The notes under the pieces are model-generated. The model did not search any database, was not told where the DNA came from, and saw nothing but the letters and a program-made list of their open reading frames with translations. A stretch of 64,000 bases of DNA from positions 306,094,001 through 306,158,000 of the forward strand of contig OZ024740.1 of the NCBI GenBank assembly GCA_964016885.1, read 5' to 3'. The position numbers were made by a program, and so were the translations under genes. The stretch is from Eledone cirrhosa (lineage: Eukaryota). Each line of letters begins with the position of its first letter. The stretch's first letter is position 1. Of this stretch, positions 1-37,299 are shown one piece after another.

Positions 1-1134
1 GATGAACGCTAAAACTCCTCAATACACTTCTAGCCGAAGACATTGATTACTTTTGACGAAACATAGATGCCATGAATTTTAGGAGAGGAGAGAATTGGTA
101 AGTTGTGGTTTTAATCTGTTTCTAAAGATATTAACGTTGTGTAGTGAAATGGCTTCAACTAGGAATCAAAGTTGTGTCATGATCCCTGCTTACTGAAACC
201 TCATGCCTTGCTGTATGGCACTCCTGAATCATATCATATCACTAACGACGTGCTATATAGCTCTATAGTTGTCAGCAGCGACAGCATTGTGAAATTGACG
301 AGTGTTTCGTAATATTTGGTCATGATAGAATCAGTAATAATATAGCCCAACTTTCTCTAAAGTTGAATTGGAAATCAAATAACTAATTCATTTCTTACTT
401 GTGTTAATTATTCTTGCCACGGTCGCCGTCGAGACATCAGCCGAGCTCCTCCGTAAAATCGGAACGTCAGCATCCTGTCTGAGGAAGGAGCCCCGCGAGG
501 TGAGGTGGCTGTTGCAGCGTGTGTCGCTGGACATTGTCGGCAGAAATCCTTTTGCAGTTTTGTCTGCCCCGACCTAGGTGTAGAGTCTGTCACCCCTCTC
601 TTTCATCCTTGCCTAATAGTCCTTTCCCTTTCCCTATAGTCCTTTCCTTTACTTTCCAATAGAGCCAGATCTGTCCTTCTTTACCCCTTCCCACCGTTTT
701 TCATTACTTAATTTTGTTTTTATCCTTTTTTAATATTTTAATGTTTAACTTTTGTTTAACTTATGTATAACTTTTGTTTATTCAACTTCACAGAAGAAAA
801 ATATTAGATGACACTCATGCCTTTCTAAATTAGCCATATACCATTTATCATTGGGCATAATAAAATTATTATTACAGTGGGGTAAATGATAGTGAATGCA
901 CCCGACCAGCTTGATGGATGGAAATATCAGTTTATTCCACTGGGTTTATACATAAATAAAAAAATAAAAAAATGACTTAAATTTACTAATAATATAAAGA
1001 CAGTTGTCCATGAGCTTTACCGGTGACACATTTAAGATCGACTGTCCTTGAAACCTTCTATATGCCTATCACTTAGCTATCGTAGCCGAAGCTTTTCGGA
1101 GAAATAGATTAAACATTCTAAACTTAGCAAAGAC

Positions 1135-17900: not shown

Positions 17901-20900
17901 AAGGGTTAATACTTACTGGACATCAGCTGGGTGGTCCAAGTCTGCAACATAAAACAAAGTTGGTTAACCGTAAAAATATATATATATTTTTATCAATTTG
18001 TTTTGTAAAATTGTTTGGTTAATATCATTAACACTAACTTTAAAGCAAAACCACCCATTTTTAAAAATACCAACATAATTTTATATAAAAACCATATAAT
18101 CAAATTACTATCTTGATAATGAACTAATTAATAATTTTAGTAAATTCCTCAAAATTCTTCAATAATTAATTGAAATAAAAGGTATTTCAGTAGAAATATG
18201 GTCACAAAAATGTTAAGTTGTAGAATTTATGTCCGTCAAAACTCCTCCATGATAAAGTTCTATAGTTTGGTTTTTGTAGCCAGCAGTATATTTAATCTTC
18301 CCAACGTATGTCAACTAGAATTAATCTCTTAGAATATCAAATGCTATCAACCAAGAAAGTTTGTACTCTTGCAATTAGTGAGCAATTTCTATAATATAAT
18401 TACAAGTGCTATTTATATAAGCGCTGCCACTAATGTCATGAATACTAATTATATTAACAATATCATGTGTGGTTAGTAATTGTGATATCTTTAATACTAT
18501 TATCCTTGGTGACAAATGATATATGGTGCTTAGCTTTGGTTTTTGTCGTGACACCTAGATGACCACTTTACAGTGTATACTGGGTGTTTTTTATTGACAC
18601 TTACACAACCACTTTAGAGTGTGGACTGGGCACTTCATCATTTAGACATCTACTGAGTGCTCAGATGGACCAGAGGCCTGCAACACACATATGTTCCTTC
18701 ACTCTACCTAGTGTCACCAGCTCTAAGGAGGTTATGATGTCATTACCACAGCTGAAGAGTCCTCTTGGTATATAACATTCTGAGGCAATGAAAAATAAAG
18801 ACTTCTGTCCAGTAACACAACCTAATGGCAACGGTGGACTTGAACTCACAACCTATAAACAAGTAATCTAATCATCCATGCCACATAGATGATAAGTTAT
18901 AACACCAATAGTATTAACTAAATGCAACACCAGCATGAATAGCAAGGTACGATAATATAATCAACGATCTTTCCTAATGATAGCAATATATAAACCATAT
19001 ATTGTATTTCTTTTAAACTTAAGCTCTGGTGTAGACTTTCTAATAGAAATATTAAATAACTAAAGATTTTCTTTAAAAATTTTGTGATAAATATTTTTGT
19101 TATGACTTTAAAATATAGCATAAGTTTTCCAGAATGTGCTTCATTATGCAGAGCAATACATTCTCTTAGTTCTTGCCAAATTCCTTAGTGTTTTCTAACC
19201 GCAGAACAAGTCTACAAAATGGAAGAGTGTTGAGCCTTCCATCAATATTGTACACCAAAATATACAGAACCATAAGCTAATAAAAGAGCTTCTACATGAT
19301 AGATTTAACTGCTATAAATAGCAGCTTTATCTACCTCAAATCACATCCCAGTTTTAAAAAAAGGAAAGATATTTAATAATGTAGTCTTTGATATACTATG
19401 CTCAAAAAACAAAAACAAAAAAAATATGATGATCATGGCTGGTCATAGATTTGCTAGATGAGGACTGATATGGGGGTAAACAACATCTACAACAAAAGCC
19501 TGCTATATTTAGTAGATATACAATTTATAATTGTCCCACAATCTGTGTATTTATACATATATCTCTATCTTTTATTATGCATCTTAACAGCCACAAGAAT
19601 TAAAGCATACATATACCCACAATCCATAAGTAAATAATTGTTTCTACTTTTGGCACAAGGCCAGCAAATACCCAGTGCATTACTGGTACTTTATTTTATC
19701 GACCCCGTAAGGATGAAAGGCAAAGTTAACCTCGGCGAGATTTGAACTCAGAATGGCAAGGGCCGTAACTATGCGTCAAAGCATAGTAAATAATTGTTTC
19801 TATTTTTGACACAAGGCCAGCAATTACCCGGTGTATTACTGGTACTTTATTTTATCGACCCCGTAAGGATGAAAGGCAAAGTTAACCTCGGCGGGATTTG
19901 AACTCAGAATGGCAAGGGCCGTAACTATGCGTCAAAGCATGGCGTCCGACCCTCTACCGAGTAAATAATTGTTTCTACTATTAGCACAAGGCCAGCAAAT
20001 ACCCAGTACATTACTGGTACTTTATTTTATCGACCCCGTAAGGATGAAAGGCAAAGTTAACCTCGGCTGGATTTGAACTCAGATCGTAAAGGGACGTAAC
20101 TATGCTGGAAAGCATGACGTCCGACCCTCCACCGATACTGCCAATCCACTAAATAATACTATTAAAATATCATAAGCAGTTTCAAATGGGGCCTACATTT
20201 CAGACCTGGCTGGAGCCTTTTTACCAACTTTGAAAGCCTACATTTTATATTTGGCTTATTACTAGCTTTGCAACAGCCAGCACATAATCACATCCAGTGT
20301 TGTAACTATTAAACTGAGTCATGTACAACCAGATCTAAGGTTATACTTCACACGGTAGAATAAATTTGGGCGTTATAAGAAGAGAATTTTAATGTATTGG
20401 GATAGAGCCTTTTGTCTGTATATGTATCTATATCTATATCAGCAAATTACCAGGACTATGTTGTCTCTATAGCCTCAATGACCAGTTCTCAAATGACCAG
20501 TTCACCTAACTGCCAATCAGTTTAATCATCACTATATATGTGTATGATTAAGCCTTTAAATATCGATGAAATAAATATCACTAGTATACGGTAATCGATT
20601 CAAAGACCAGACCAGAGGACCTTGTCTTGGGCCTGGTTAAAAGTTACACATACTTTAAAATGTTCTGCTTGCCAGTGTAACATTTTAACCGAAACAGCCA
20701 TATATGTTTTCCAACAACAATAAATTTCCCAGATATGAAATAAAAAGACTAAAGTTATCAATGGTAGCCTACAACAGAACATGGTATTATATTTCACCTC
20801 CACATCACCCTATGTATTAAAGAAATACACACATGTATATGAGTACAAGGGTTTCTAGTCATCTTTATATAAAGTATGTGTCGCAATAGGTGTGCTGAAA

Positions 20901-21070
20901 ACATCAGGACAAAAGCAAATAGTATGGGGGATCACAAGTAATAAAAGTATGATAAATAACCGAGACGAAGTAAATGGAAGCAAAGAAAATTTGTTCTTTT
21001 AATAATTACATTCATATTTGACAGGAGGCAGTTCCGTGTCGAAATCAGAAATGACTTTCTCATCAGCCAT
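4108..21070 (-). CDS. ZBTB8OS: Archease (RtcB tRNA-ligase cofactor), complete 9-exon gene, 155 aa
   Basis: Join complement(21010-21070, 17917-17941, 16770-16780, 15590-15621, 14731-14809, 12463-12545, 7129-7181, 6597-6633, 4108-4194) = 468 nt. All introns are GT..AG and phases are consistent. Protein: MADEKVISDFDTELPPVKYEYLDHPADVQIHSWGSTQKEAFEQSAMAMFAYMTDIERVDMLERQEIKATGHDLLSLLFHFLDEFLFLFCCEPFFIVRKVKILEFDLENFSIHAEGYGEEFDLDKHPQGSEVKAITYSNMQVHDNENNDIFVIIDI. It matches the archease motifs YEYLDHxAD, EVKAITY and C-terminal VIIDI. Confidence 0.97.
4273..4472 (+). mobile_element. Diverged Meta-like tRNA SINE
   Basis: TGGCAGAATTG A-box-like, AGTTCAAATCC B-box, GATAAAATAAAGTACCAG core. Confidence 0.7.
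5036..5965. repeat. 30-bp minisatellite, about 31 near-identical copies, in archease intron 8
   Basis: Unit TGGCCTACCACTGTTGTAGCTACAATACTA with a few recurrent variants. Confidence 0.97.
6597..6633 (-). CDS. ZBTB8OS: Archease exon 8 (YGEEFDLDKHPQ)
   Basis: ttgcag|GTATGG...CCTCAG|gtaggt, 37 nt. Confidence 0.95.
7129..7181 (-). CDS. ZBTB8OS: Archease exon 7 (KVKILEFDLENFSIHAEG)
   Basis: ttacag|AAAGTG...GAAGG|gtgagt, 53 nt. Confidence 0.93.
7535..7742. mobile_element. piggyBac-like MITE family A (TTAA-flanked)
   Basis: TTAA-CC(C/T)TTTAGCATTTA ... TAAATGCTAAAGGG-TTAA termini; other copies at 42156-42371, 43137-43324, ~45164-45363, 60700-60927 and 62424-62639. Confidence 0.8.
8224..9135. mobile_element. 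(TA)n-embedded non-coding element with a 74-bp inverted duplication (Penelope-type inverted tail architecture)
   Basis: 8363-8436 is the reverse complement of 9062-9135; bounded by (TA)n runs on both sides. Confidence 0.5.
9175..9400 (-). mobile_element. Non-coding retroelement or SINE sharing the RTE 3' end
   Basis: CCATGCTAGCATGG-type stem, GGACGTTAAACG and (GAT)n tail; related copies at ~3640-3937, 11570-11850, 12607-12880, 33440-33750, 34180-34365, 41290-41650 and 42560-42722. Confidence 0.7.
9731..11520 (-). mobile_element. 5'-truncated RTE-clade LINE (family B): RT with PHD-like finger, frameshifted
   Basis: QFGF, FVDLEKAFDRVP, GVHQGSVLSPLLF, LLYTDD, RRLRWYGHV and GRPRKTW motifs split over three frames; (GAT)n tail. 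Confidence 0.95.
12463..12545 (-). CDS. ZBTB8OS: Archease exon 6 (GHDLLSLLFHFLDEFLFLFCCEPFFIVR)
   Basis: tttcag|GACAT...GTGCGG|gtaaat, 83 nt. Confidence 0.95.
13555..13720 (+). mobile_element. Possible short relic of a CRE-like non-LTR retrotransposon
   Basis: Peptide LTPKDAACILGSPILPKAIRECLETK resembles the LGxPI motif after the RT core; no splice context; weak. Confidence 0.25.
14731..14809 (-). CDS. ZBTB8OS: Archease exon 5 (SAMAMFAYMTDIERVDMLERQEIKAT)
   Basis: ttgcag|TCAGCC...ACTG|gtattt, 79 nt. Confidence 0.95.
15590..15621 (-). CDS. ZBTB8OS: Archease exon 4 (WGSTQKEAFEQ)
   Basis: ctccag|GGGGCAGC...GAACAG|gtaaac, 32 nt. Confidence 0.93.
15622..16769 (-). other. U12-type (minor spliceosome) GT-AG intron 3 of archease
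   Basis: 5' splice site GTATCCTTT; branch sequence TTCCTTAAC (plus-strand 15636-15644) about 15 nt before the AG; only a short pyrimidine run. Confidence 0.88.
16306..16565 (+). mobile_element. tRNA-derived SINE, second family (CTTGAGCAAGACACTT core)
   Basis: tRNA-like head plus GTGTTCTTGAGCAAAACACTTCATTTCATGTTGCTCCAG-type core; copies at ~16832-17130, 34563-34820, 42388-42530 and 58005-58100(-). Confidence 0.7.
16770..16780 (-). CDS. ZBTB8OS: Archease exon 3, 11-nt micro-exon (QIHSW)
   Basis: ttctcttttcag|AATTCATTCTT|gtatccttt; supplies exactly the missing 11 nt and restores frame. Confidence 0.9.
17275..17820. repeat. Degenerate ~30-bp minisatellite in archease intron 2
   Basis: Recurring GATTATGTCACTACAACTGTAGATAGAGGA-like units. 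Confidence 0.8.
17917..17941 (-). CDS. ZBTB8OS: Archease exon 2 (YLDHPADVQ)
   Basis: ttgcag|ACTTGGACCACCCAGCTGATGTCCA|gtaagt, 25 nt. Confidence 0.95.
19631..20150 (-). mobile_element. Second head-to-tail trimer of the Meta-like tRNA SINE
   Basis: Three near-identical units; only the outermost has the full A-box head TGGCAGTATCGG. Other copies at 39677-39860(+), 41660-42056(-, dimer), 46311-46507(-), 59829-60030(-) and 62905-63090(-). Confidence 0.85.
21010..21070 (-). CDS. ZBTB8OS: Archease coding exon 1 (MADEKVISDFDTELPPVKYE)
   Basis: aaacATGG start, donor T|gtaatt, 61 nt. Confidence 0.9.
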
Positions 21071-21165
21071 GTTTTTAGTATGAATATCCGACTGTAAATA
21101 ATAGGTGATCTGTGATTGGGTAATTTCCACCACTCCTACCCCTCCGGTTGCCATAAACTACCAAA
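21071..21165. promoter_or_regulatory. 95-nt spacer between divergent archease and IQCC start codons (candidate bidirectional promoter or overlapping 5' UTRs)
   Basis: Head-to-head ATGs at 21070(-) and 21166(+); contains ATTGG (CCAAT box, 21115-21119) and GTTGCCAT (RFX half-site-like, 21147-21154). Confidence 0.6.
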
Positions 21166-21237
21166 ATGGATTCTCATGACAACTCACTCTGCCAAAAAAA
21201 TTCTTCTATTACACTTAGACAAATTCTCCTAATACAG
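21166..21237 (+). CDS. IQCC: IQCC exon 1 (MDSHDNSLCQKNSSITLRQILLIQ)
   Basis: aaaATGG start, donor CAG|gtattt; ends with the IQ residues of the IQ motif. Confidence 0.8.
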
Positions 21238-22731
21238 GTATTTCAAAATTTTTGTGGCTCTAATTACATACTGACATACCAATTTTGCGTGTATATAATG
21301 GTTTCTGTTCTTTTAGGTATAATGGTAATTTTGTGTGTGGAACACCTGTCAATCCTGATCGAGCGGTTATGTGGTGGGGCGCACAAAAGAATAAACACTG
21401 ATCATTTTAAAAATAAGTAAAATCAAAATAGTCAATTCGATAGCCCGTTTGTATAATACACACATATACATATCTATAATGATAAATGAAAATGTATTTG
21501 CTTGTGTCTGGGTGGATTTCTGGCTTCAGGAAATATCAGTATTGTATTAAAGTAAATAAACTGCAAAATAAAATATCATTTCAAGTTCCTATCGTTCTCC
21601 CGTCTAAAAAGAAATTTTGAATTTTAATTATTAGCGAATCGCTTCACTGTTCTCTCCTTGAATAAAGATTAGAGTGTATCCGAGAGTCAATAAAAATAAC
21701 TGTTTTAATCGAAAAACGGGACGGATTCGAATCTCATCGAAGGTGCTCTGTAACGATATTTCAATCGTGCCTTAGCTTATTACTCGTCCATATTCTATAT
21801 TTGTTGAGAGACACCGTTTTGTAGAAAATAAACGTCGTTGTATTAAATTAAATAAACCGCAAAACGAAATGTATCAGTGCAAGTTCGTATCATTTACATG
21901 TCAAAAATGTATTGTTTTCTTTTTTCATACATTACGAAACATGCGCATACAAACACACACACACACACACATATATATATATTAATTTATTATGGGTAAG
22001 TGGTGAGGCCTGCTTTTTAGCGGTGTCAAGAATTTAAGTAAATTTATTTTTATTTTCGAACGTCGTGTTTACATTTTGTGTGTGTTTAAACGAAACATGC
22101 TGGCGACAAAGCTTCTTCTTTGCACGGCTCCATGTGTTCTCTATGAGCTGTGTGTGCACATCAGGGTCCGCAGGATCTACAAAGTTCCGTTCGTGCACCA
22201 CAACATCGTGAACGTAAATCCGACCTTCAATTTCCGAATAGGAAGCCCAACCATCTTGTAATGAGGCTTGCAGAATGGTGAGTCCATCATTGTCGAGATA
22301 GAAGAATCCAAATACTTCCATAGAAAGTATCATCGTGGCCTGTGGAGACAAGGTCTTCGGCGCTGTTGAACGCCATTCTGGACGCTGCTGCCCTGTAGAA
22401 ATCCCAAATCGAAGCCGTGACACTCTGGTCCCCATCATTCAGCAGCGGATTTTGCCAGGCAGCCGCATCATCTCCGATGGTTAGGCTTCCTATTCGGAAA
22501 TTGAAGGTGGGATTTACGTTCATGATGTTGTGGTGCACGAACGGAACTTTGTAGTTCCTGCGGACCCTGATGTGCACACACAGCTCATAGAGAACACATG
22601 GAGCCGTGCAAAGAAGAAGCTTCGTCGCCAGCATGTTTCGTTTAAACACACACACAAAATGTAAACACGACGTTCGAAAAGGAAAATAAATTTACTTTCA
22701 TTCTTGACACCGCTAAAAGTAAGAAACGCCC

Positions 22732-22783
<52 letters not shown>

Positions 22784-25700
22784 TTAATTAGAAAGTGAAA
22801 ACACAAAATATAACTAATCCATTACCAAAGGTTTCTGGATCCCAGACAATAATAATATACGTCTGGATCGGTCGTCATACAGAGATGTTATGGATAAAAA
22901 CTATGAAATGAGATTTAAAATCTGTTAAAAATTGGAAGTGAGACTGGAAAAATAGCGGGAAATATACATAAGAAAAGACGGGTAAGAAAAATAAAATATA
23001 AAAATATATAGCAATATAGAAAAAGACGTGTGCATACATATACACACACATAGACACATTCAGATAAAAGTAAAATATATATATATATGTATATATACAT
23101 ACATGGGCATACGTTAAGACGGGCGTTCGGGAAAGTGAAAGTAATTTTGACAACACAATGAAAGTTACGATACACACGCAATTGTATGGATTTTTTAATA
23201 TATATATATATGTGGGTGTGTATATACATGTGCGTGTGAGTATATGTATGTATATATATGTATGTGAGCGTGTGTATATATGTGTGTGTGTGTGTGTGTA
23301 TATATATATGTGAGTGTGTGTATATATATGTGAGTGTGTGTATATATATGTGCGTGTGAGTATATATATATATATATATGTGTGTGAGTACGCAATACTA
23401 ATTAACACCATATCACTATAGAGACCTGTTGTAAATAAACAACACGCAATACTAATTAACACCATATCACTATAGAGACCTGTTGTAAATAAACAAACAA
23501 ATTCAGTGTACACACATATTTACAACAGGTCTCTATAGTGATATGGTGTTAATTAGTATTGCGTACTCACACACATATATATATATACTCACATGCACAT
23601 ATATATACACACTCACATATATATACACACACACACACACCCTCACACACATATATACACACGCTCACATACATATATATACTCACACGCACATATATAT
23701 TAAGAAATCCATACAATTGCGTGTGTATCGTAACTTTCATTGTGTTGTCAAAATTACTTTCACTTTCCCGAACGCCCGTCTTAACGTATGCCTACATATA
23801 CACACACACATATACTATATATATATATATATAAGTATGTATACAGACGTACAGTAGTATGTATATACATACATGCACACATATATATGTACGTATGGGT
23901 TTACCGAACATTTATTATAATGTTCGGTTTGTTTGTAAACAAACAGCTCGAATTATTAGCCGTACAGTGTTCGGCAACCATCGTTGCCATTTTGTCCAGC
24001 ACTGACAAAGGAACGATGAACTAGTTTCTAGATTATTAGCTGTCATCAGCAGCGTATACCTACCTGTCAGTTGATTGAACATTTGAAAATATATACTTTC
24101 CTTATGCATATTAACGGCTGAGCAGCCTAATTTGCATATCGAGTGAGTTAGTCGGCCGGGCGTACCGAAAACGATAAATGAAAAAAATGAAATTTCATTT
24201 CTCACTATAGTACGGCTGATACTTAAATATAAGTATGTATACGTAAATACATATATGTATACAGACGTACAGTAGTATATATATACATACATCATCATCA
24301 TCATCATCATCATCGTTTAACGTCCATGTTCCACGCTTGCATGGGTTTGGACGGGAGTTTTCCCACTTGAGGCAAGAGTGGTTGTCTTGCTCGCATAGGA
24401 CTGTCTGGCGGGTTTTCTACAGCTGGATGCCCTTCCTAACACCAACCACAGTTACAGTGTGGGACTGGGAGGTTTTTACCGTGTTGCCTACACGGCCACA
24501 TTACAGCATGGACTGTGTGTTTTTTTTTGTCGTGACACCTACACAATCTCATTTGTTTCGGCCTGGATGTTGTGGCACCAACATAACTTTACATAGAAAG
24601 GGGCGGTGTGGATGGGGTGGGGGTGGTGGGACGGGGGTGTATTTTGTTAGAGATGCCTACTGACTGTAGTAGGTTTTACTTTGTATTTAGGTAAGGCGGG
24701 TCTTCTCTATTACTGAGTACCGCCAAAGATCTCGGTCCAGTGACATTGTCTTGGAGAGGTGTGTGTGAGGTCGGAATTTATCAGGTCGTCCCAGGTTTTT
24801 CTGGGTCTGCCTACTCCGTGGCTACCGTCTATCTTTATTACCCTGCACTTTGTTATACAGCTATCGACTTTCATGCGCATCACGTGTCCATACCAACGTA
24901 GCCTTCTCTCGAGTAAACAACATCTGATCCCTCTTATTTCTAATTTTTTCCTTAGTTCGTTTATGCTTTGCCGTTCACGTATATTACTGTTACACATCCA
25001 GCGGAGCATGCAAGCTTCGTTCCTCTCTAGTCTGCGTATATCCTCTGCACACAATGCCCAGATCTCACTGCCATGCAACATTGCTGTTCGTATGCAGGCA
25101 TCGTACAACCTGCCTTTCATTTTTAGGGAGAACCCTTTAGCAGCTAATAGTGGTATAAGCTCTCTGAACTTTTTCCAACCAGTTCTGACTCTAGCTACTG
25201 TACTTTCAGAGCACCCTCCCCCACTGCTGATTTTATCGCCCAGGTAACGGAAGCTGTCCACTATTTCTATAGAACCCTCTGCGCAATTGAAAGAGCTAGT
25301 ATTTTGTGGGCACTTGCTGCTACTTATTGCACCAGAGCACCGGCCACATGTAAAATCTATGTTCTTAGTTAGCTTACCTGTGATCCCACTACATGTTTTA
25401 TGCACCCATACTTTGCATTTAGGACATAAAATGGAGTTTCTACCTACGCCTTTCCTACACACTGAGCATGACCATTTCCCAGAAGGGACCGCCGCCTTAT
25501 TTTCTTTCCTACAAACTAGAACTTTAGTCTTAGCCAGGTTAATTTTAAGTCCTTTTGATTCTAGGCCGTGCTTCCATGTTTGGAATTTCTTCTCTAGCTC
25601 GGCCATTGATTCAGCTATGAGTGTCAGGTCGTCTGCGTATAGGAGTTCCCATGGGCAGCCGGTCTTGAACTCCTCTGTTATAGCCTATATATATATATAA

Positions 25701-26746
25701 TGCTAACACCCACCGTACCACATACACACACCAGTACATTACACTCACTCATACTGTCCCCAGCAATTTCTCCCCCCACACACACACACATCCCACTAAC
25801 ACCTCCACTAATATACACACACACCCCACACACACCACCAACCTCTCCCTCAACCTTTCACACATACCCATCCTCTCCCCTGTCCACCGCACCTCCGCAC
25901 ACACATACACACACATACAGACCATCCCTAATACCCGTCTGTCTGCCTCCTCCTTACTGCCTTCATCCCTACCACTGCCTGTCTGTCACCCTCCTACTGC
26001 TATCCCCTCTCTCCCGCATCCTTCGCCCTGCCTTGACCCTCTTGACCACTTCCTGTTGCGCGCGCACCTCACAACCCTCTACTTCCTCCGCACCATTCCA
26101 CGAATTCTACACCACTGGTCACACCGCTCCAGACATCCCACCCTGTTATACTTGGATTTCTCACCATCTCTTCTACACTCTGTAGGAAAACATTCAGGAA
26201 CACACGCACACACACAACCATACATCCACACCACACAAAAACACACACACGTGCGTATCCTCACATGCACATACTCAGTCTCCAGACCCTGCACGCCCCT
26301 TCTCCCCCACCCCCTCTGACCCCCTCTCCATCCACACACACACACACTGGTCTTCCTATTACTCGAACATGGAACCTCGTTCTTCCCCAAACTCTCACAC
26401 TCACATCCACACACAAACGTACACCTACACATACACCTTCCGCCCTCCCCGCTCGAACCCCCTGTCTCCCTCGCCTCTCTCCTCCCAACCCCCCACCCCC
26501 ACATCCTTTCACCACTTGTTTCATTTTAATTTTTTTACCCTCTTAATAATTTTTTTTCCTTCCCTTCATTTCCCCCTGTTTTAATGTCTTTCCACTACTC
26601 CCCCTCACACCCTCGGAACTCTTTTCCTTCCCACTTTTCTCCTGATGAAGGGCTTATGCCCTAAAGCCCCCCCCCCCATTCTCCAGTGTGAACCTAATAC
26701 TAACACTTTGTACTGCACTCTTCACTATTGTTTTTGTTTTGTGTTT

Positions 26747-26785
<39 letters not shown>

Positions 26786-27127
26786 TTTTTGCTTTGTTTT
26801 ACAAGATTTCTTAACTGAAAACGTGTGTTGAAACAGATATTGTTATAGTTTGGGAGGGTCATGCGGCCAATAAAAACACACGCACCTGTTGGTTTTCACT
26901 TCAATTTATTACAAATTTCCTGTTGTTTGGTTTAATAGCTGGATGGTGGTTTATTTATTGTCAAAGCTCTTTCGTCACACATTGTGACCTCCTCAGTGAC
27001 TAATTTGTTATTTTGTCTCTCTCCTTTGTTCTGTCCTACACCATCAGTTTTCCAATTCATAGCTGAAGGTTTTCAAAATATTTATTTATAAACATACCGT
27101 ATATCGATAGATATAAAAAGTACTCAT

Positions 27128-27159
<32 letters not shown>

Positions 27160-27535
27160 TTACACTTACACATATATATGTATCTAACCCATGCTAGCGT
27201 GGAAGAGAGACATTAAATGATGATGATGTATGCACATATATATATGTCTGTGTGTGTATATATATATATGACTAAGGTTCTTGTAAGTAGATGAGAAAAC
27301 AGAAACCAGATCCCCTCAGGGAATCGGCCTTGCTCAGTATGTAGGAAAGGTGTAGGTAGGAACTCCATCCTCTGCCCCAAATGCAAACAATGGGTACACA
27401 AGAGATGTAGTGGGATCTCAGGAAGCTTGACTAAGAATGTAGGCTTCATATGTAGCAGCTGGACACTGCCCACAACAGGACAACCCGTCTAACCCATGCT
27501 AGCATGGAAGAACAGATGTAAAATGGTGATGATTG

Positions 27536-27566
<31 letters not shown>

Positions 27567-30500
27567 ATATATATATATTAATAAAAGGAATTCCAACTTT
27601 GTCTGATTTACTCGTTTTATTTACAATCCTTTAAAATTATAATGATATTATAATGAAATAGTATGGTAGAATATTAAATGTTAAGTGTTAATTGAACAAG
27701 TACTTTCATGCTTTCGCAATCTTCAGGTTCATATTCAGTGGTGACAGTCAAGTTTGCAATTTTCAACTGTGAAAATTGCAAACTGGACTGTCACCACTGA
27801 ATATGAACCTGAAGATTGCGAAAGCATGAAAGTACTTGTTCAATTAACACTTAACATTTAATATTCTACCATACTATTTCATTATAATATCATTATAATT
27901 TTAAAGGATTGTAAATAAAACGAGTAAATCAGACAAAGTTGGAATTCCTTTTATTAATATAATCTTCTATACACACCCGTGTATATTTATTTATATATAA
28001 ATATCGATATATATATATTTCGTTTCTGAATTTGTTTAACAAGATTCTTTATCTGAAAACGTGTGTTGAAAACCTATATTGTTATGCTTTGGGAGGGTCA
28101 TGTTGCCAATAAGAAACACATGCACCAGTTGCTTTCACTTCAATTTATTATAAATTAAATTTATAAATTTAGGAATTTATAAATTTCCAGTTGGTTGGTT
28201 CCACAACCAGACGATTATTCATATATTGTCAAAGTTCTTTCGTCACACATTCTGTGACCTCTTCAATGACTGGGGGATTCTTTTCTTTGTTTTTGTGCCT
28301 CTCCTTTGTTCTCTCCTACGCCATCTTGTTTTCGTGTGTGTTGTGTGCTTAGTTTGCGCATGTGTTACATCCGAATGTCTGTGTGTGTTTATATTTGTTT
28401 ATTTGTTTGTTTATTTACATGTTACTGGTTGGTTGTTTGTTCTATTTGTGTGTGTGTTTTCATTTTGTCCTTAATTGTAAGTTGTGATGTTGCTATTCCA
28501 TTCATGTTTTCTATTTAATTTTGGTTGGAGTTCATTTATGTTTATTGCCTCTGTGATTTGTCTAAACATTGCGTCTTTTCTGTGTGTAGATTCTATTTTT
28601 ATTTCTATGTTCTCTAATTTGCCCTTATGTTCTATTTTAGATTGTTGGTGGAGTACAGATGATTCTTTACTATCTTGAAGCTCTCGCCAGTGTTCATTTA
28701 TCCGTTCTCCTATACTACGAGCTGTCTCACCTATGTACACTATATTCTTATCTCTACATTGTCCTTCAGTACATCTTATACTATATACTACATTTCTAGT
28801 TGTACAGTTAATATGGGGGCTTAGTTTACAGATTATATATTTCTTATCTATACAGGGAGGTCTTTGAAAAGGGTATGTATTGCTAATAAGTGTTTTTATG
28901 GAGGTACCTGGTCTTTCTACTATCTTAATATTGAGTTTATGTTTATCTAGCGCCCTTCTAAATTTGTAAGCTAATTCACCTCTAGGGGTTGTATTGATGA
29001 ACATTACACTCTGGTATTTATTGCTATCATACCATGAGTTTATTCTATTAACCTTATTCCTAGTTCTTTCTATTCTATTCCAAAATTTGCTTCTATACAA
29101 GGGGCAGATCCCATTTGTATCATTATTTACCATTTTTTCCCATTTGGTTCTGGCTCCTCTATATAATCTGATTTTATCTCTCTGATTGTAACCAGAGAAC
29201 TGCATATGGTGGATGAAGTGTTGTATGTGTCTCTCTAGTTCTTTGGGGTTGCACATGCGGGACACGTTTCTCATCACCCGTACCAAATCCGCAATCAGTA
29301 TGTTGATTTTGGTATGGTCCGAAACAGCTGAGTTTCGGTGGATCATGGGTTTGGCATAATGGGAATGGAGGATTTGTTTTTTGTTATTAATGGTATCTAA
29401 CCAGAACTCTGTGTCTAGTACAGGTAATCGATGGGTGTTTGCTTGGGTAGTCTATAGTAACTCTAATACTCTGGTGGATGGAGTTAGCTATTTGCTGGAT
29501 GCTTTCCATGGTGTTTTTCTCTAATTCCTGACTGTTCTCAAGTGGGGGTGTTTTTACTACGATGTTTATATCATCAACGTAGCGGGAGTACATTATCAGG
29601 GTTAAGCAACTGGTGCGTGTGTTTCTTATTGGCAACATGACCCTCACAAAGCATAACAATATATATATATATATATATCCATCATTAAACACTCCTTCCA
29701 GTGGGTCAGGTCAGAAGCAACCATTTCTAACTGATCTGGCTGGATCCCCAAGCCAGTCCAGCCAAGCTCATGGATGTTATCCAACCATCTTGCTCAGGGT
29801 CTACCCCTGAATCTCCTGCCAGTTGGTTTTGCCCATAATATCACTCCAGCGATTCTTTCCTGAGACATTTTAACCACATGTCCATTATCTTACTAATTCT
29901 TGTTTTATTAACTATGGAAGAAATAAAGACATTACCAATTTTAGTAAGATTTGAACTTAGAACACACATGGACTTAAATTAATAAAAGCCACTCAACAAT
30001 GCAAAGCTGAAGGAAAATATATTTATTTAAAATTTTGACTTGAACTGAAGCATTTTCAAAAATTTTGTGACATACACAGTTGTAATATTTAACTCCTGTA
30101 AATGAATTTTTTGGTAGTTGAGAAACTCATGATGATTGTTCATCTGTGGTTGCAGACACATAATAAGTATAGCTTCTTTTATACTAGAGTACTGTCAATA
30201 TCAACATTGGTGATAGAAATATAACTTCTCCATTTTAAAAGCAGCAGAGATTTTTTTAACATATGTTTATAAAACTTGATTCTACTGTCTATTTTGGATT
30301 AGGAAATATAGTTTTTATTAACTCTAGGTCAGCCTGATTTTACAGACTTCTGATCAAAGGCATTCCAGCTGTAATTATCTTTTTAGGTTGTTGTTGTTTT
30401 TTGACATATCAGTGACACTTTTATTATATACCAAACTTATATCTATAGCTTTCTTGTTATGTCTGAGGCATTACATTTATTCCAAACATTTTTGTTGATA

Positions 30501-33500
30501 CTGTTATTGTTACTAATCTATTATCATTTTTTTTTAATGCTATAGGCATATATCCGTGGTTTCATTGTTCGAAACCGCATGAAAAAACTAAGAGCAGAAT
30601 TTGAGGAAATTATGGAAGAAATTGATCCCAATGAAAATTTTCATGTTGTTTGGAAAAGAGACTTTTTATGCCTACCAGAAATTTCTTCAAAGAAAGCAAG
30701 TTGTTGTAAAGCATTCCAGTTGAATTCTAAATCACATAAGATTAAACCTCCTAAACTTCTAACTAAACCAGAGAACCATATGATTGCTGAAAATTTTAAC
30801 CAAATATCTTCAAAAGTATCTTCTAATTTTGCTAAAGAATTCTCAACATCAAACTCCTTAAACCAATGTTCAAACAGTCAAACATCTACAAGTAACACAA
30901 AATGTTGCAATACACAAGGAATTCATTACAGAAGAGAGAAAGAATTACATAAAAATGAAGAAATGGTTGAAACAGATGAGAATCATTTTAGAGAAGATTC
31001 TATTGAGTCTGAGCAACCAAAGAAAGAAAGAAAAACTTCTACTTTTACACCCCTTGACTGTTCAACTTTGACTGATGTCACATCAGTTTGGGACAGTGAC
31101 TCAGGTAAATATATATTTATATTGGAGTCACATAAATGGCAGAGTGTCTGGTTAAATATTTTGTGATATTGAGTTCTGTTTTTTTATATACTACCTATGG
31201 TTATCCTGATAAAGTTGACTTTACTTTTCATACTTCCTTAGTTGATAAAATAAGTGCCATTGGAGTATTGGCAAATACACACTCCCTCCACCATTTTCTT
31301 AGTTAGATGTGTTCTGAGTTCATATCCTGTTGAGGTCAACTTTGTTTTCATCCTTTTGGAATTGATAAAATAAAGAACTACCCTTCTCTGGAAGAAATCT
31401 GTTGTGTTCAAACCTGGAGAGGATTAGACGCCACTAGGTTTTAAAATGCCCTAGAAATGCTGTATGTCTATACAGTGCCCCTTCTACTCTCTCAGGAGTT
31501 ACAGGACCATACGTATATATCTACATATATTTAGATTCAGGACTTGTGGTTAAACCAGCTTCTAATAAGGAACAAACTGACTAGTTTTGTTTCATTAAAA
31601 AGTTGCTTACTTCTTCCCTTACAAATAGTTATTAAACAACTATTTATTAAAATGTAAACATGATTAAGACTGGCACAACTCATTTACATAATGTGTATAA
31701 AGTTGATGGCCTAACATTAATTACTAATACAGTGTTATTTAATAAACATATATTGAACAAAACATTGGTTCTGCACCTTCACAGTTAAGTGGTTAGAAGA
31801 AAAAAGAGAATCTAGCTGTTATAAAAAATATGCTTCAACAAATATACTACTAGCCTCTCCATGTAAATATGGAAAATAAATGTAAAGACAAATGAATAAT
31901 CAAAGAAGGGTTTCTCCCTGTGTACAAAAGGATGGTTATATGATGCTTGTGTGAGATGCGCGATGCTGCATGATAATGAGACATGGGCAGCAACTGCAGA
32001 AGATATGCGACGGCTGGAGAGAAATGAAGCAAGTATACTCCGTTGGATGTGCAATGTCAATGTGTGTGGATGACCAAGCATAGACGAGTTGAGAAAGAAA
32101 CTGGGTATAAGAGGGATAAGTTGTGGTGTGCAGGAGAGAAGTCTGAGATGGTATGGACATGTGATGCGCATGGAGGATGACCGATGGGTGAAGAAGTGCC
32201 AGGAAGTCCCAGTAGAAGGAAGACACAGTAGGGGTAGACCACGTAAAACATGGGCGGAGGTGGTGAGAGCAGACCTCAGATCGTTGAAATTCACCGAGGA
32301 GATGACGAAGGACCGTGACAAATGGAGAGATGCTGTGCTGAATAGGACCCATCCAACCCTTGCAAGCAGGGGAAAGCGGACGTAAAATGATGATGATGAT
32401 ATGTTAGAGTACATTCATGTCACTTATCAACATTAAAGTATTCTCTGTCTCTCTATGTACACATACTCACAGGTCTCGAATAATCGCCACCTCCCACCAC
32501 CCCCTTATTAATTTTTCAGATTTTTTCAAATCCCCCTCCTTTATTCCAGCCCCCACATATTAAATTTTGCTAATCTATCTCTGGCGAAATTTTATTTTAA
32601 GTGGTAGCATTCTTGTGACAATTGATTTTTTTTTATACATTAAAAAAAATTTACACATGACAAAAAAAAAGAACATTGCAAGAAATCCCATACATTATAA
32701 AATAAATATCATGGGTTAGGATGGGGGTCTCAATACGTAAACTAAACGACTAATTCTGGTTTTTAAAACAATCAACGGAGACAACCTAAAAAATTACCGA
32801 TTTTCCACCCCCAATCCCCACTCATTCCAACACCCCCTATTATTTGGGACCCAAGAGTACACTTTGTTGTGATATTGTATGAATATAATATAGTGTGGTA
32901 TATGTTATATACCATATACTGTAATGTCTATAATATCCCGTTTACTTTTTTTCTCATCATAAAGCAAATGACTCTCTGGATGATAACAATTCCTCAGAAA
33001 CCATAAACTCTCTGCTACAAGACAGACAGAGTTTGGTCATGGAGTTAGTGTGGATACAACAGGCAATATCAAGTCGGAAAAATGTGAGTTAGCATCTTCA
33101 GCATCAATAAAAGACAGTTAATAACATTTGTAAAATAAGTTTATGTGCCATGAGAAGAATTGAATTTTGTTGTCTCAGGCATGGCTCTTTATGTGGTAAA
33201 TAGGTTACTGAATGCACACTTCTTGGAGATATGTGTATGTGTGTTGTAGTTATAGATGTATAAATATATGTATTCAATGATATATGACACCAGAGACCTA
33301 TTTATAATATACCTACATGTCCTTGGTGGATAAAGTGTCAGACTCTGAAGCAGATAAAGGATATTCATATTGTGATATTAACTCTTTTCTCTGGCTACTG
33401 CATCTAACTTACATATCGTCATACATTCTCTTAAGTGCAGAGGAGAAGTTGTCAGGTCTTTTGACACAAACTGAAGGGTCCTTCTAACTCCTTGTTTGGC

Positions 33501-35859
33501 AAGCTTTCTATAGCTGGATGCCCTTCCTATCACTAACTACTTTAGAGCATGTACTGGGTGCATTTATTGTGTAGATTACCAACACCAGGGAGGTTGTCAC
33601 ATCCTTGACACAACTGAAGGGTCTTCCCAACTCTTGTTTGGCAAGCTTTCAACAGCTGGATGCCCTCCCTACCACTAACCACTTTATAGCATATACTGGG
33701 TGCATTTATCATGTAGATCACCAACACTTTGTCATATCCTTGACACCCAACACTTTGTTTCAACAATTGAAATCAATAATTTAGTTTGTCTGTTAGATAT
33801 TTACTGGAATATATTCAAATATCTTGGGAGGTTTAGAAGATGACCTGTTGTTAAAAATTGCTATGTGATGAGTCAATGTTGATTAATTTTTAAAATAAAG
33901 ATGGTTATAAAAAGAATTATATGTAAGAACCAAGCAAGAATGGAATTGGTAACTTTTGTATCTGAAAGTATATTTAATCTTGCTGAAAGAATAGTTTTGA
34001 TTAAAATGCTATTTAAAGAGAGAACAAGTGGTGAAGTGATTCAACAATTGAAGCATTTTAGTTTCAATAAATTGATGAAGATTACAACTAGAAAAAATTG
34101 TCTATATATTGTAGAACTAATGTCACTAACTAGAACTGACTTTTGTATACAAAATATATTGTCATTAACATATTGTCATGACAAAAAGCATCCAGCACAC
34201 TGTGAATATGGTTAGCATTAGGAAGGGCTAGTAGGCACCGTAGAAACCAAGCCAAAATCAGTTCTGTATAGGCAGGACATGATCATTTGACCTGGCTTGT
34301 CTCACAATGGGACAACTCGTCTAGTCCATGCTAGCGTGGAAAATGGATGTTTAATGATGATTATAAATAGTATCCTCTTGTTGCTATTGAATTGTCAAAG
34401 ATTTTCATATTAATGTTGACATCCTAAATACTGTAATTATTGGACAAACAGCATTCAAAACATGTGATACATGTAATATTAGCATATTGTGGCAAGTTAT
34501 ACTGTCAAATGAAGTATCAATACATATTCAATGTAAAATTAATTTAAAAAGTGTTACCCAGTGGAGGCACATGTCCTAGTTGTAAAGGATCATAATGTTG
34601 TGGGTTTGATTCCTGAGCTGAGTTGTGTGTTGTGTTCTTGAGCAAAACACTTCATTTCATGTTGCTCCAGTATACTCAGCTGAAAATGTGTACCGGCAAT
34701 AGCTGGGGGTTTAACTCTGCAATGGACTGGCATCTTATCCAGAAGTGAGTCTTGTACTCTCAGTCACTTCATGCCACAAAACCAGGGTAAGTACCAGGCT
34801 GATGGGCTTGAGACAGACTTTAGAGTTACACAGAAGGATAGTGAGGGAGATGTGTTAAAAAAGTGCTTCCAAGTTGCTGGACTTGTTCCTGTGAGTGGCC
34901 AACTCCAACCTGATAGCAGCAAGTAGGGAGGTGGTTTAGAGACCCAGAATGCCAGAAGTTTCTACTCCTAGAGATTTAATGACAAATTTATCAGAAAGTA
35001 GTTTATTTAGTCAACAAGGTTGAAGTGGTCGACAATCAAGCAGCAACAATATAGAGTAGAAATGGTGCTTTAGTGTGATTGAAGATATGATAACCCCTTC
35101 TGTGGTGCCCAGATAAAATGTTCCCATTACATTCTGTTAAATGGTTGGCATTGGGAATGGTTTACAGCTGTAGAAACCTTACCTAAAATTGCAATATACA
35201 TGTGCGATGTAGTTCTCCAACCTATCTAGGAGGGTAATAATTCTGAATAAAATCTGGTTCAGATGGTAACAAACCACTCAACCTATACCTGCATAGAAAG
35301 TGAACATAAAATAGTGTTGATTATGAAGTACTCTTAAGGTATGAAAAATATTTGGAATATTGCCAAAAATGTTTCAATATTCAGACTTGTGACTAGTTTT
35401 AACCCCTTGATACCAAACCACCCAAAACCATCTCTAGTTCTACAATACAAATCAATTTATTGAAAAGTGTTTATCTAAAAGCCTTTCCATCATAATTTTA
35501 CATAAGAATGTTTATGTTCCAAACACCAACTTAATGAGAAAATTAGTTATATTACTAAAACCCTCCACATTCTTGATTATTTTCAAAATCATCTGAAAAC
35601 CATAGGCATTGAATTTCATCAGAAATATGGTAATGACAGGGTTAATATAAATTCCTTCTTTAATTCTTAGTCCATATGGTAATGGCAGGGCTCCTAGTTC
35701 AACTTATTTGTCATGATGTAGAAGTTGTGAGAGGATAACAAGAAATTAGTATAATTAGTGTTTAATTCTATTTATGTGGTAAGACTACGTTGTACCTGAC
35801 ATGATTTCTTTTATTTATTGTTTCAGTATCTCCAGTTGAAATCCCAGATTGAAACATAA
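21166..35859 (+). CDS. IQCC: IQ motif-containing protein C orthologue, 4 exons, 260 aa
   Basis: Join(21166-21237, 30546-31104, 32965-33083, 35827-35859) = 783 nt, GT..AG introns, phases 0/1/0. The IQ motif LLIQ|AYIRGFIVRNRM is followed by LRAEFEEIMEEID. The C-terminal RQSLVMELVWIQQAISSRKN|YLQLK resembles human IQCC LRAEYEAIVREVE and [25 protein letters not shown] (recalled from memory). Confidence 0.85.
22015..22718. mobile_element. Merlin (IS1595/ISXO2-like DDE) transposase relic arranged as a fold-back
   Basis: Plus strand reads VEIEESKYFHRKYHRG/VFGAVERHSG..PNRSRDTLVPIIQQRILPGSRIISDG*ASY..HERNFV..DVHTQLIENTWSRAKKKL; ~22015-22255 is the reverse complement of ~22482-22718. Confidence 0.85.
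22780..23792. mobile_element. (TA)n-embedded element with long inverted duplication and a degenerate hammerhead motif
   Basis: 23106-23437 versus 23517-23792 inverted; internal 54-bp tandem duplication at 23390 and 23444; hammerhead-like relic at 22819-22882(-). Confidence 0.55.
24290..25686 (-). mobile_element. 5'-truncated RTE-clade LINE (family B), second copy with a long open RT/PHD segment
   Basis: PWELLYADD, GKWSCSVCRKGVGRNSILCPKCKVWVHKTC..CGRC, RRLRWYGHV; (GAT)n tail; highly similar to 9731-11520. Confidence 0.95.
26783..27075 (-). mobile_element. Solo Penelope pseudo-LTR with hammerhead motif
   Basis: Aligns by eye to 28020-28330, the 3' end of the GIY-YIG element; sits between (TA)n runs. 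Confidence 0.75.
26960..27000 (-). ncRNA. Minimal type-I hammerhead ribozyme motif
   Basis: GUCA-CUGAGGA-G-GUCAC(aaugu)GUGAC-GAAA-GAGC-UU-UGAC: stems I and II paired, core intact, CUU cleavage triplet. Confidence 0.65.
27270..27535 (+). mobile_element. Internally deleted RTE family B fragment
   Basis: TKVLVSR..PSGNRPCSVCRKGVGRNSILCPKCKQWVHKRCSG fused to the RTE 3' tail. Confidence 0.75.
27574..27961. repeat. 388-bp near-perfect palindrome (192-bp arms, 4-nt loop) with a hammerhead motif on each strand
   Basis: Arms 27574-27765 and 27770-27961, loop ACTG, one mismatch seen. Confidence 0.92.
27804..27842 (+). ncRNA. Minimal hammerhead ribozyme motif (mirror copy at 27693-27731 on the minus strand)
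   Basis: UGAAC-CUGAAGA-U-UGC(gaaa)GCA-U-GAAA-GUAC-UU-GUUCA; palindromic AGUACU stem III; non-canonical U.U at 10.1-11.1. Confidence 0.6.
28020..29660 (-). mobile_element. Penelope-like retroelement, 5'-truncated (RT C-terminus plus GIY-YIG endonuclease), with pLTR and inverted partial pLTR
   Basis: YSRYVDD; ORF 28471-29346 with NVVYSIRC..YIGETARSIGERINEH..RQITEA..LNRKHEW; 29611-29660 is the reverse complement of 28078-28127; hammerhead relic at 28228-28270 (C3->U). Confidence 0.92.
30546..31104 (+). CDS. IQCC: IQCC exon 2
   Basis: ctatag|GCATATATCCGTGGT...TCAG|gtaaat; 559-nt open exon. Confidence 0.9.
31900..32400 (+). mobile_element. RTE LINE 3' fragment
   Basis: ERSLRWYGHVMRMEDDRWVKKC..GRPRKTW; (GAT)n tail. 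Confidence 0.9.
32464..32859. mobile_element. TA-flanked MITE (Tc1/mariner or pogo-type termini)
   Basis: TA-CTC..GGTC.C.AATAAT...ATTATT.G.GACC..GAG-TA termini; opposite-orientation copy at 61358-61744; fragments at ~3090-3184 and 13075-13172. Confidence 0.7.
32965..33083 (+). CDS. IQCC: IQCC exon 3
   Basis: ataaag|CAAATGAC...AAAAAT|gtgagt; MELVWIQQAISSRK motif. Confidence 0.88.
35399..35645. mobile_element. piggyBac-like MITE family B (TTAA-flanked, older)
   Basis: TTAACCC.TTGATACCAA ... GGGTTAA termini; relatives at ~39170-39360, 43491-43916, 44113-44958, 45593-45828 and 62773-63198, several interrupted by younger retroelements. Confidence 0.65.
35827..35859 (+). CDS. IQCC: IQCC exon 4, terminal (YLQLKSQIET*)
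   Basis: tttcag|TATCTCCAGTTGAAA...TAA. Confidence 0.82.
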   Translation, partial: YLQLKSQIET

Positions 35860-37299
35860 TTCTATACAAAACCTTCAGTGACAGACACAGGTTTCATTGC
35901 TTGCAAGCTGTTATATTAAGATATTGGCCACTTTCCAATAGGTATGTCATTTAATCTCCAGCAGTAGAAACTTCTGGCATTCCAAGTCCTCAAACCACAT
36001 CCCTACTTGCTGCTATTGGATTGGTGTTGGCCAACTGCAGGAATGAGTCCTGCAAGCTGGAATAGCTTTCCTCTGGGATAATGCTTTCTCTCTTCTGTCT
36101 GCTGGGAACATGAGATGAGGTTCTACTTGTTTGAGAGGTAGAGCGGATGAATGGGGGTGCATGACAACCTTTCATCGACTGGTTCATTCTATTACAGTTG
36201 GCCACAACATACACACACAAGACACTACTAAGCCACATTTTCCACACAAACATCAGTTCAATATTTAGATCAAAAGATTTATTATTGCTATCATCAATTG
36301 TACATCTATTTATATGTTGGCTTGATCTGAACAATTCTACAGTATTATATCTCTTTATGTCTATCCATTGTCAATTCTTGTGCGAGTTTAATTCTGACCA
36401 CTTTAATCCTCATTTTCTTTGCCTTATCTGTAGATCCTCTTCAATTACTACCAAACAGCTCAAAGTATATTTTCACTCTTCATATGTCTTCCATTACTGT
36501 CACATCTAATTTCCTTTTCCTTGGTTCATATATTAGTGTCAGTTAGCTAGTGGATCATGTTTGCAGGTTTCACAGCATAACTGTGCAATATAGTGCATAC
36601 AGGGGCTGTTAGCAAGATATATAGAGACTGACTGACAAACAAGTCTCAACAATGTGCTTTGAAATGTGGAGAGTTTGGCAGAATGAGAACAATGTTGATA
36701 CTTTAATCAGCCAGAAAATATATAAATCTGTGTTCACAGTCTAAATATTGGTAGGAACAAAATCAAATTTTGCTGGAAAGGAAATCAATCCAGTATACTC
36801 AGGTATTTTAGTGATGATCTCTGTAGATATAAAGGGCAAAATCCATCCCAGATGTAGAGAAATTTAATAATTGTTATTTGCTATTTCTGCTAACTCATTT
36901 TCTTTAGGGCCTACAAAAATATGGATGTTTTAACATGAGCACATTATCACACAGACACACGTCTTAGAATCAGTTTTATTCTATGTGTATCCAACCTATA
37001 ATAGAACCAATATGGGCTCTGTAGAAAGTTAACAATTGCCGAAGATAGTGTGTAGCAAAGAAGTTTTAAGTTAGTTGTTCATTAACAGTGGTTTATATCT
37101 TTGTTCTTAGAAATAAGTAATAGTTGTGTTTTGGTGTTATCAAGTACTACAAAATAATGTGAACATCATTTAATACAGTGTTCAAGTACATCGTCAGATT
37201 TAAAACAAGCACATATTAAAAAATGTACCCTTCTCTCTTCAATTAAAAATATCTACCCAATTAAGAAATCAATATCAGAATGCTAAAAAATTATATTAT

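Follow-up and report, generated by a model that had tools for sequence, protein, structure and literature searches.

The palindrome at 27574-27961 is a head-to-head pair formed by the front end (pLTR/5'UTR) of a common Penelope-like retrotransposon, the part that bears its hammerhead. The insertion probably arose by twin priming: both cDNAs would have run off the element RNA at its 5' end, leaving the two pLTR/5'UTR copies joined head to head. All positions refer to the window, i.e. the whole 64,000-nt stretch that was analysed.

The palindrome and its parent element

Two arms of 192 bp (27574-27765 and 27770-27961) enclose a 4-nt centre, ACTG, and differ by a single mismatch (A27750 versus G27785), exactly as the earlier note had read them. 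G27785 is a private change of the right arm, T standing at the same position in 128 of 129 sampled copies. The left arm, on the minus strand (27574..27770), is a pLTR/5'UTR copy that extends from position -4 of the parent, its inferred transcription start, to +192 and bears no tail. The right arm, on the plus strand (27770..27961), covers +1 to +192 and is followed at 27962..27993 (plus strand) by a Penelope "tail", the sequence of ~45 nt found 3' of the 5' pLTR in full-length copies (e.g. L143, L153, L154, L159), here with a 10-bp internal deletion; the earlier note does not mention it. At the head-to-head junction (27766..27770), with the left arm complete to -4 and the right arm starting from +1, the two share a one-base microhomology (T27770). 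The four central nucleotides had been taken for the loop of a symmetric element; they are present, but they are parent sequence (left-arm positions -3..0), and the one-sided tail makes the element asymmetric. The left flank (27536..27573) is a (TA)n/(TG)n target with no discernible target-site duplication; the right one (27994..28017) is TA-rich and common to the tail end of a neighbouring second Penelope family.

Near-perfect arms set in simple repeats might be thought a fold-back artefact of assembly. The flanks are unlike each other, though, the tail is found on one side only, and arms at other loci have diverged at ~3% of sites. Furthermore, a short-read contig from another sample (run X4, record 31; X4 is one sample with X1 and X2) bridges the centre over 27696-27840 with 7 differences, and five of the seven opposite-strand joints shown from run X3 begin at -5..+5, this contig and the X3 joints representing related copies and not specifically the window locus. 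Given the asymmetry together with the bridging contig and the joints, an artefact is very unlikely, and we place its probability close to nil. A depth step of RAD reads (X19-X21) at the arm start and the absence of strand-switch reads were both discarded as restriction effects, the step because read ends pile up at AATT and GAATTC sites, one of which lies at arm +5. Among the sequencing runs listed as containing the sequence, none was of RNA.

A search of the genome (3.0 Gb, 1,796 contigs) with the arm gave 938 candidates, of which 40 were scored, nearly all at 98-99% identity. A 35-nt piece of the arm 3' end has 2,705 exact genomic matches, its reversed control none. The palindrome itself is multi-copy and recurs across the genome, a point that the earlier note had proposed to check by such a search. 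Among the 30 best arm loci (29 distinct), nine share a common sequence upstream of the arm, leading back to the end of a GIY-YIG endonuclease (E=4e-7).

As read from 20 long loci, the parent is laid out as arm, tail, short simple repeat, ATG, ORF, 3' UTR with TATA box, and arm again, ~4.4 kb in all (4,385 bp in L154). The full-length copy L153 begins at -4/-5 and continues with the arm, the tail and an ATG at +277, i.e. ~280 nt from its start. Direct pLTRs lie on either side of the ORF in L153 and L154, and the hammerhead is located within the pLTR. Reverse transcriptase (RT) shares one frame with a C-terminal GIY-YIG domain, a CxxxxCxxC linker preceding the GIY-YIG core; two cysteines in the core (CCHH motif) and a DKG motif can be read from the translations. 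The ORF is broken in all 20 long loci translated. Of 8,000 scored candidates 1,799 were homologues (the best at 62%); these are RT/GIY-YIG proteins, the named ones coming mostly from bivalve or bivalve-linked assemblies; no named Neptune/Nematis references were among the 120 homologues listed. The optional tail corresponds to the sequence 3' of the 5' pLTR, as it does in EN+ Penelope elements. According to PMC8557442, a CX2-5CxxC linker between RT and EN defines the Neptune/Nematis type, and by this definition the parent, an EN+ Penelope-like element judging from its translated sequence, is of that type.

Four copies apparently starting at -242 proved to be a 3' UTR deletion variant with no true stop there. 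L034, L068, L080 and L117 form a subfamily in which a deletion in the 3' UTR follows soon after the stop codon.

The palindrome had been regarded as a separate, ORF-less rod-like unit. This view finds no support: the arm turns out to be the pLTR belonging to a Penelope-like family that is autonomous, and the centres differ between loci. Its separation from the adjacent Penelope copy was seen correctly in so far as the families and their pLTRs are different; an independent type of element it is not.

Ends, tails and the origin of head-to-head pairs

For a survey of copies, the first 100 of the 2,705 exact matches were taken, all on contig 1, and reduced to 84 loci by removing five duplicate loci and merging pairs; this sample spans the first 106 Mb of one contig and is biased to copies with an intact 3' end. 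It contains 39 head-to-head pairs, 29 short solos and 16 longer single copies. In 34 of the 39 pairs both arms start at or after -15, and these short palindromes are of near-constant length, 390-430 bp. Scaled to the genome, the sample corresponds, as a rough figure, to ~2,270 loci and ~920 short palindromes.

Exactly one arm is tailed in 33 of the 39 pairs, whereas two tails occur in four and none in two, an excess of one-tailed pairs over independence (about half expected) with p=6e-6. The arms end at +192 (50/127) or near +238 (64/127 within +228..239), and head-to-head pairs carry one of each 3' end. At the other side, 76 of 127 arms start at -8..+8, 37 of them exactly at -4; 27 reach further upstream and 24 start later, some merely from deletion-split alignments. 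Solos and longer copies have the same ends. The earlier note had considered that the palindrome could be an ordinary pLTR product with variable inversion points; an ordinary pLTR product it is, but the inversion points cluster sharply.

The distance from the TATA box to -4 is 31 nt in all 14 matches found in the 20 long loci. The base before -4 in the parent is T in 49/49. In copying a cap, an extra G before the start is expected, and in solos located after ATATAT the preceding base is G in 45, C in 11, T in 4 and A in 3 of 63 (counted by eye). After TATATA, G precedes in 22 matches, 9 of them in one array, and C in 22 of the first 100 of 184 matches; pooled, G stands at 59 versus ~51 for C (p=0.25). 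As far as can be judged from genomic DNA, a transcription start at -4 is well supported by its position and only partly by the extra base. A large tandem segmental array lies at G000:C12:16979167-17443352, where one solo junction is found nine times, spaced ~40-65 kb. Copies starting at -4 drop the TATA box, yet land just behind (TA)n. At the appropriate distance, the adjoining (TA)n could stand in as a sequence resembling a TATA box, which might explain the choice of target.

Both priming events could be kept if -4 were no capped start but the place where a longer RNA is processed or causes a pause. The extra-G signal is indeed not clean, and a hairpin begins exactly at -4: an 8-bp stem is predicted for the extreme 5' end of the element RNA (-4..+22; fold run on the L153 copy), corresponding to 27744..27770 on the minus strand and complete in the left arm. 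Nevertheless, the TATA box is fixed at 31 nt, a full-length copy starts at -4, and the stop lies past the hairpin, a point at which no pause would be expected, so that we hold this alternative to be highly improbable.

We favour the following course of events. The element RNA would start at -4, 31 nt below the TATA box, and the endonuclease would cut both strands of a (TA)n tract. Each DNA end would then prime reverse transcription internally, ~200-240 nt from the RNA 5' end, one at the end of the tail and the other at the end of the pLTR. Both cDNAs would run to the RNA 5' end, like retroviral strong-stop DNA, after which their 3' ends would anneal over 1-2 bases and be filled in; how they are joined, and that each end takes a different one of the two sites, is what we infer. 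Success of one end only would result in a solo arm, and for longer copies either a template jump or a template made by read-through would be required. The majority of templates would escape cleavage by the hammerhead, the cut site of which (+68/69) lies downstream of the main stop.

The junctions themselves bear on this. There are 32 distinct junction sequences among 41 sampled centres, and even the commonest of them, which is the window's own (5/41), is found with the tail on either side. Varied centres and a tail on either side imply that the palindromes were made at insertion and not copied as a unit. This is hard to reconcile with a non-autonomous, MITE-like or retrozyme-like palindrome whose transcription and movement involve the entire unit, its ribozyme locking itself. 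Such a unit would fit the abundance of short palindromes of similar length (~40% of sampled loci, hence the ~920 by scaling), and non-autonomous pLTR-derived hammerhead elements are described in the accessible part of a preprint (bioRxiv 10.64898/2026.07.22.740005). But no single fixed internal structure is inherited here, the solos (29/84) and the longer copies (16/84) have the same ends, and the inserted palindrome lacks a TATA box. Retrozymes, moreover, are head-to-tail arrays, and no head-to-tail tandem units, each with a hammerhead, were found in the sampled loci. We therefore consider a palindromic unit distinctly improbable.

Alternatively, one cDNA might reach the RNA 5' end, fold back and copy itself into the second arm; Arkhipova et al. 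2013 (PMC3846280) put forward a variant of this, in which self-priming takes place on an antisense template. The predicted ability of the element 5' end to form a hairpin would suit such snap-back, and at the two commonest junctions, each seen at 5 of 41 centres, there is a hairpin with a loop of 3-4 nt. Copying an untailed arm cannot add a tail, yet in the window the loop bases belong to the untailed arm, so that the tailed arm cannot be its fold-back copy, unless the tips were trimmed later. Of 32 pairs, 15 have a more complete untailed arm and another 15 a more complete tailed arm. Both arms reach -3 or -4 at three centres, and at two of these only 0-1 base separates the near-complete arms, which again disagrees with folding back. 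Later trimming of hairpin tips could blur this argument from the junctions.

Bases that define subfamilies are common to the two arms of a pair far beyond random pairs (0.10 vs 0.37), which indicates that both templates usually came from one source. This likeness would equally be given by snap-back or by later conversion and to that extent counts against twin priming; on the other hand, in 6 of 45 pairs (from 44 loci, one of which entered twice) the arms disagree at three or more subfamily sites, which snap-back does not predict. Taking all this together, we think snap-back unlikely and retain twin priming with run-off as the preferred explanation.

The neighbouring second Penelope family allows an independent look at both rules. 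It is represented in the window by a truncated endonuclease copy on the minus strand (28017-29451), accompanied by an inverted piece on the plus strand (29604-29663), and by a solo pLTR at 26754-27051 (minus strand) starting at -67. Its pLTR is different, with a more canonical hammerhead (~28230-28270 and 26960-27005, also with U17) and likewise two 3' ends, and a 27-nt piece of it has 25,130 exact matches. In the first 30 matches, an unselected set, one tail is present in 10/10 pairs, but of 31 arms no more than 3 have their stop in the range -65..-77 from the core; in a set selected by the hammerhead, seven segments stop at -62..-67. Hence the one-tail rule repeats, whereas the sharp stop is much weaker and run-off of this sharpness is not general. 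The motif directly after the second-family stop presumably resembles a YY1 site.

The one-tail rule (33/39 here, 10/10 in the neighbouring family) and a stop placed 31 nt after the TATA box favour two primings on sense RNA over antisense self-priming. On a wider reading, about which we are evenly divided, the palindromes would be trapped intermediates of Penelope insertion in vivo. A dimeric RT-endonuclease would prime from both ends of the break, invariably with the tail site used at one end and the pLTR-end site at the other. The templates would be capped RNAs that had not been cleaved, and each priming would yield a strong-stop cDNA. Full copies would need a retrovirus-like jump from the RNA 5' end to the 3' repeat; where this repeat ends may be set by the hammerhead. 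The few copies starting at +69 would record ribozyme cleavage in the germ line.

The hammerhead and the host intron

Each strand of the palindrome bears one sense hammerhead. The minimal type I motif of the right arm occupies 27804..27842 (plus strand; predicted cut 27837/27838) and comprises stem I (27804-08/27838-42), the core (27809-15), stem II (27816-27), GAAA (27828-31), a palindromic stem III (27831-36) and U17 at 27837. Its mirror in the left arm, found by motif scan, lies at 27693..27731 on the minus strand. These two were the only matches on both window strands, in a scan that is non-exhaustive and passed over the hammerheads of the neighbouring family. The hammerhead in both polarities had been read correctly in the earlier note, the two matches being one motif mirrored. 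Its assignment to the minimal Penelope type holds as well, as the CUGANGA/GAAA core, stem I and the palindromic 15.2-16.2 region are all present.

Stem II consists of 3 bp plus a U-U closure in place of G-C, so that the G10.1-C11.1 pair is absent, as is the unpaired base after A9, and residue 17 is U. Related motifs in the genome have A-U or G-C at the position of U-U in the same register. In a third hammerhead family (L169, L177), the same stem III is accompanied by a five-pair stem II with varying A-U/G-C closure. An Rfam scan of 20000-36000 gave no hammerhead among 50 matches at E<=5, these being unspecific hairpins, all below gathering scores. The motif is the standard one of its family, identical over 39 nt in 52 of 127 copies; raw per-site divergence is 0.026 in the hammerhead versus 0.042, a difference on which we place no weight.

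The most variable bases of the arm are positions 29-32 (27798-27801), directly 5' of stem I. Differences between the arms of one pair fall mostly here, and the commonest variant ends in CAG, resembling a splice acceptor. The matching place is the end of an intron in the Penelope element of Drosophila (PMC4209133).

Stems I and II are predicted to form with a probability of ~0.08-0.10 in a single arm versus 7e-49 in the hairpin, and the self-pairing of stem III is predicted at -7.2 kcal/mol. The single sense hammerhead per strand precludes a dimer in cis. The antisense arm would thus lock the ribozyme fold, as had been suggested, but the idea of a designed self-locking switch finds no support; on the predicted folds, locking by the hairpin is best read as a by-product.

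Truncated copies joined to TA offer a view of possible cleavage. Among those beginning between +46 and +76, 13 of 30 start at +68..+71 (first 100 of 122 entries, counted by eye). After collapse of near-duplicates the figure is 11 of 28, with p=0.046 versus adjacent positions. Judged from these ends, we see a weak hint that a few templates may have been cleaved at the hammerhead site.

The palindrome lies inside a 9.3-kb intron between the candidate first and second exons of a plus-strand gene, 21166-21237 and 30546-31163, which together spell an IQ motif. The gene is one which we take to be IQCC-like. A Pfam search of the second candidate exon gave no match. The earlier placement of the motif in sense orientation to an IQCC pre-mRNA is plausible in view of the joint IQ motif. 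In the host intron, the insert would fold to a ~190-bp duplex in which the ribozyme is unable to form. Further long inverted repeats occur in the same intron at 22015-22718 (182-bp arms, 97%) and 23084-23814 (247-bp arms, 79%; close to its middle sits a 54-bp tandem pair). Elsewhere in the window, 5037-5963 is a tandem array of a 30-bp unit (31 copies, 96% matches) with several frames open.

Comparison with known systems

Taken singly, the locus is ordinary, one of many dead-on-arrival intronic insertions. The family, by contrast, is a natural experiment on how Penelope-like elements (PLEs) make head-to-head pLTRs with one-sided tails. Moreover, hundreds of perfect hairpins of ~190 bp would be a standing source of dsRNA for editing or silencing.

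L1 twin priming employs two primers from one break and joining by microhomology, as in the present proposal, but L1 primes at its poly(A) tail and at an internal site that varies. Retroviral minus-strand strong-stop DNA is likewise a short first cDNA ending at the RNA 5' end; there, however, the primer is a tRNA and integration comes later.

PLE insertions with an inverted, 5'-truncated pLTR and a one-sided tail are already published (PMC3846280; PMC8557442, both in the parts available). They resemble the present family in the head-to-head pLTR, the tail of 30-45 nt at one end, the TATA box plus initiator in the pLTR, and (TA)n targets in elements with the CX2-5CxxC linker. The present family differs in that its commonest product is ORF-less, both arms stop at one position and the length is near-constant at 390-430 bp. 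In the same portions of these papers there are no counts of tail asymmetry, the junction is not tied to a start site, and the 2013 paper prefers antisense self-priming. Among the main texts accessible to a literature search, none was found that links the point of inversion to a start site or counts how often only one arm is tailed. In short, pLTRs in inverted orientation, tails on one side and hammerhead pairs on opposite strands have been published, and the sharp run-off at a start site was not found in the literature searched.

On minimal hammerheads in PLEs of metazoans, Cervera and de la Pena (PMC4209133) report inactive monomers and low activity of dimers, as well as "dual" opposite-strand hammerheads 100-700 bp apart in Schistosoma. 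The present hammerhead is like these in its short stem I, palindromic stem III and predicted activity as a dimer. Unlike them, it has a stem II of only 3 bp plus U-U, and two features that the same paper lists as conserved are missing, namely the G10.1-C11.1 pair and an additional base following A9. Non-LTR retrozymes (bioRxiv 10.64898/2026.07.22.740005, accessible part) are, like the palindrome, short, ORF-less and pLTR-derived with a type I hammerhead, but they are arranged head to tail in tandem, whereas the palindrome is head to head and contains no hammerhead dimer in cis.

The closest experimental counterpart is Poseidon of the green anole, studied in vitro by Frangieh et al. (PMC11167929, cited here from its available text). 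Both target strands are cut and extended, two internal RT start sites bound the tail, a dimer is predicted, and uncleaved RNA is the main template. Adjacent internal start sites bounding the tail, cutting and extension of both target strands, an AT-rich target and the use of uncleaved RNA are the points in which Poseidon agrees with the present family as reconstructed here. On the other hand, Poseidon belongs to another clade, has no linker, and its hammerhead overlaps the ORF start, while in the present family hammerhead and tail lie entirely in the 5'UTR; a joined two-arm product is not described in that text. For this existing in vitro system, the one-tail rule and the position of the stop give exact predictions.
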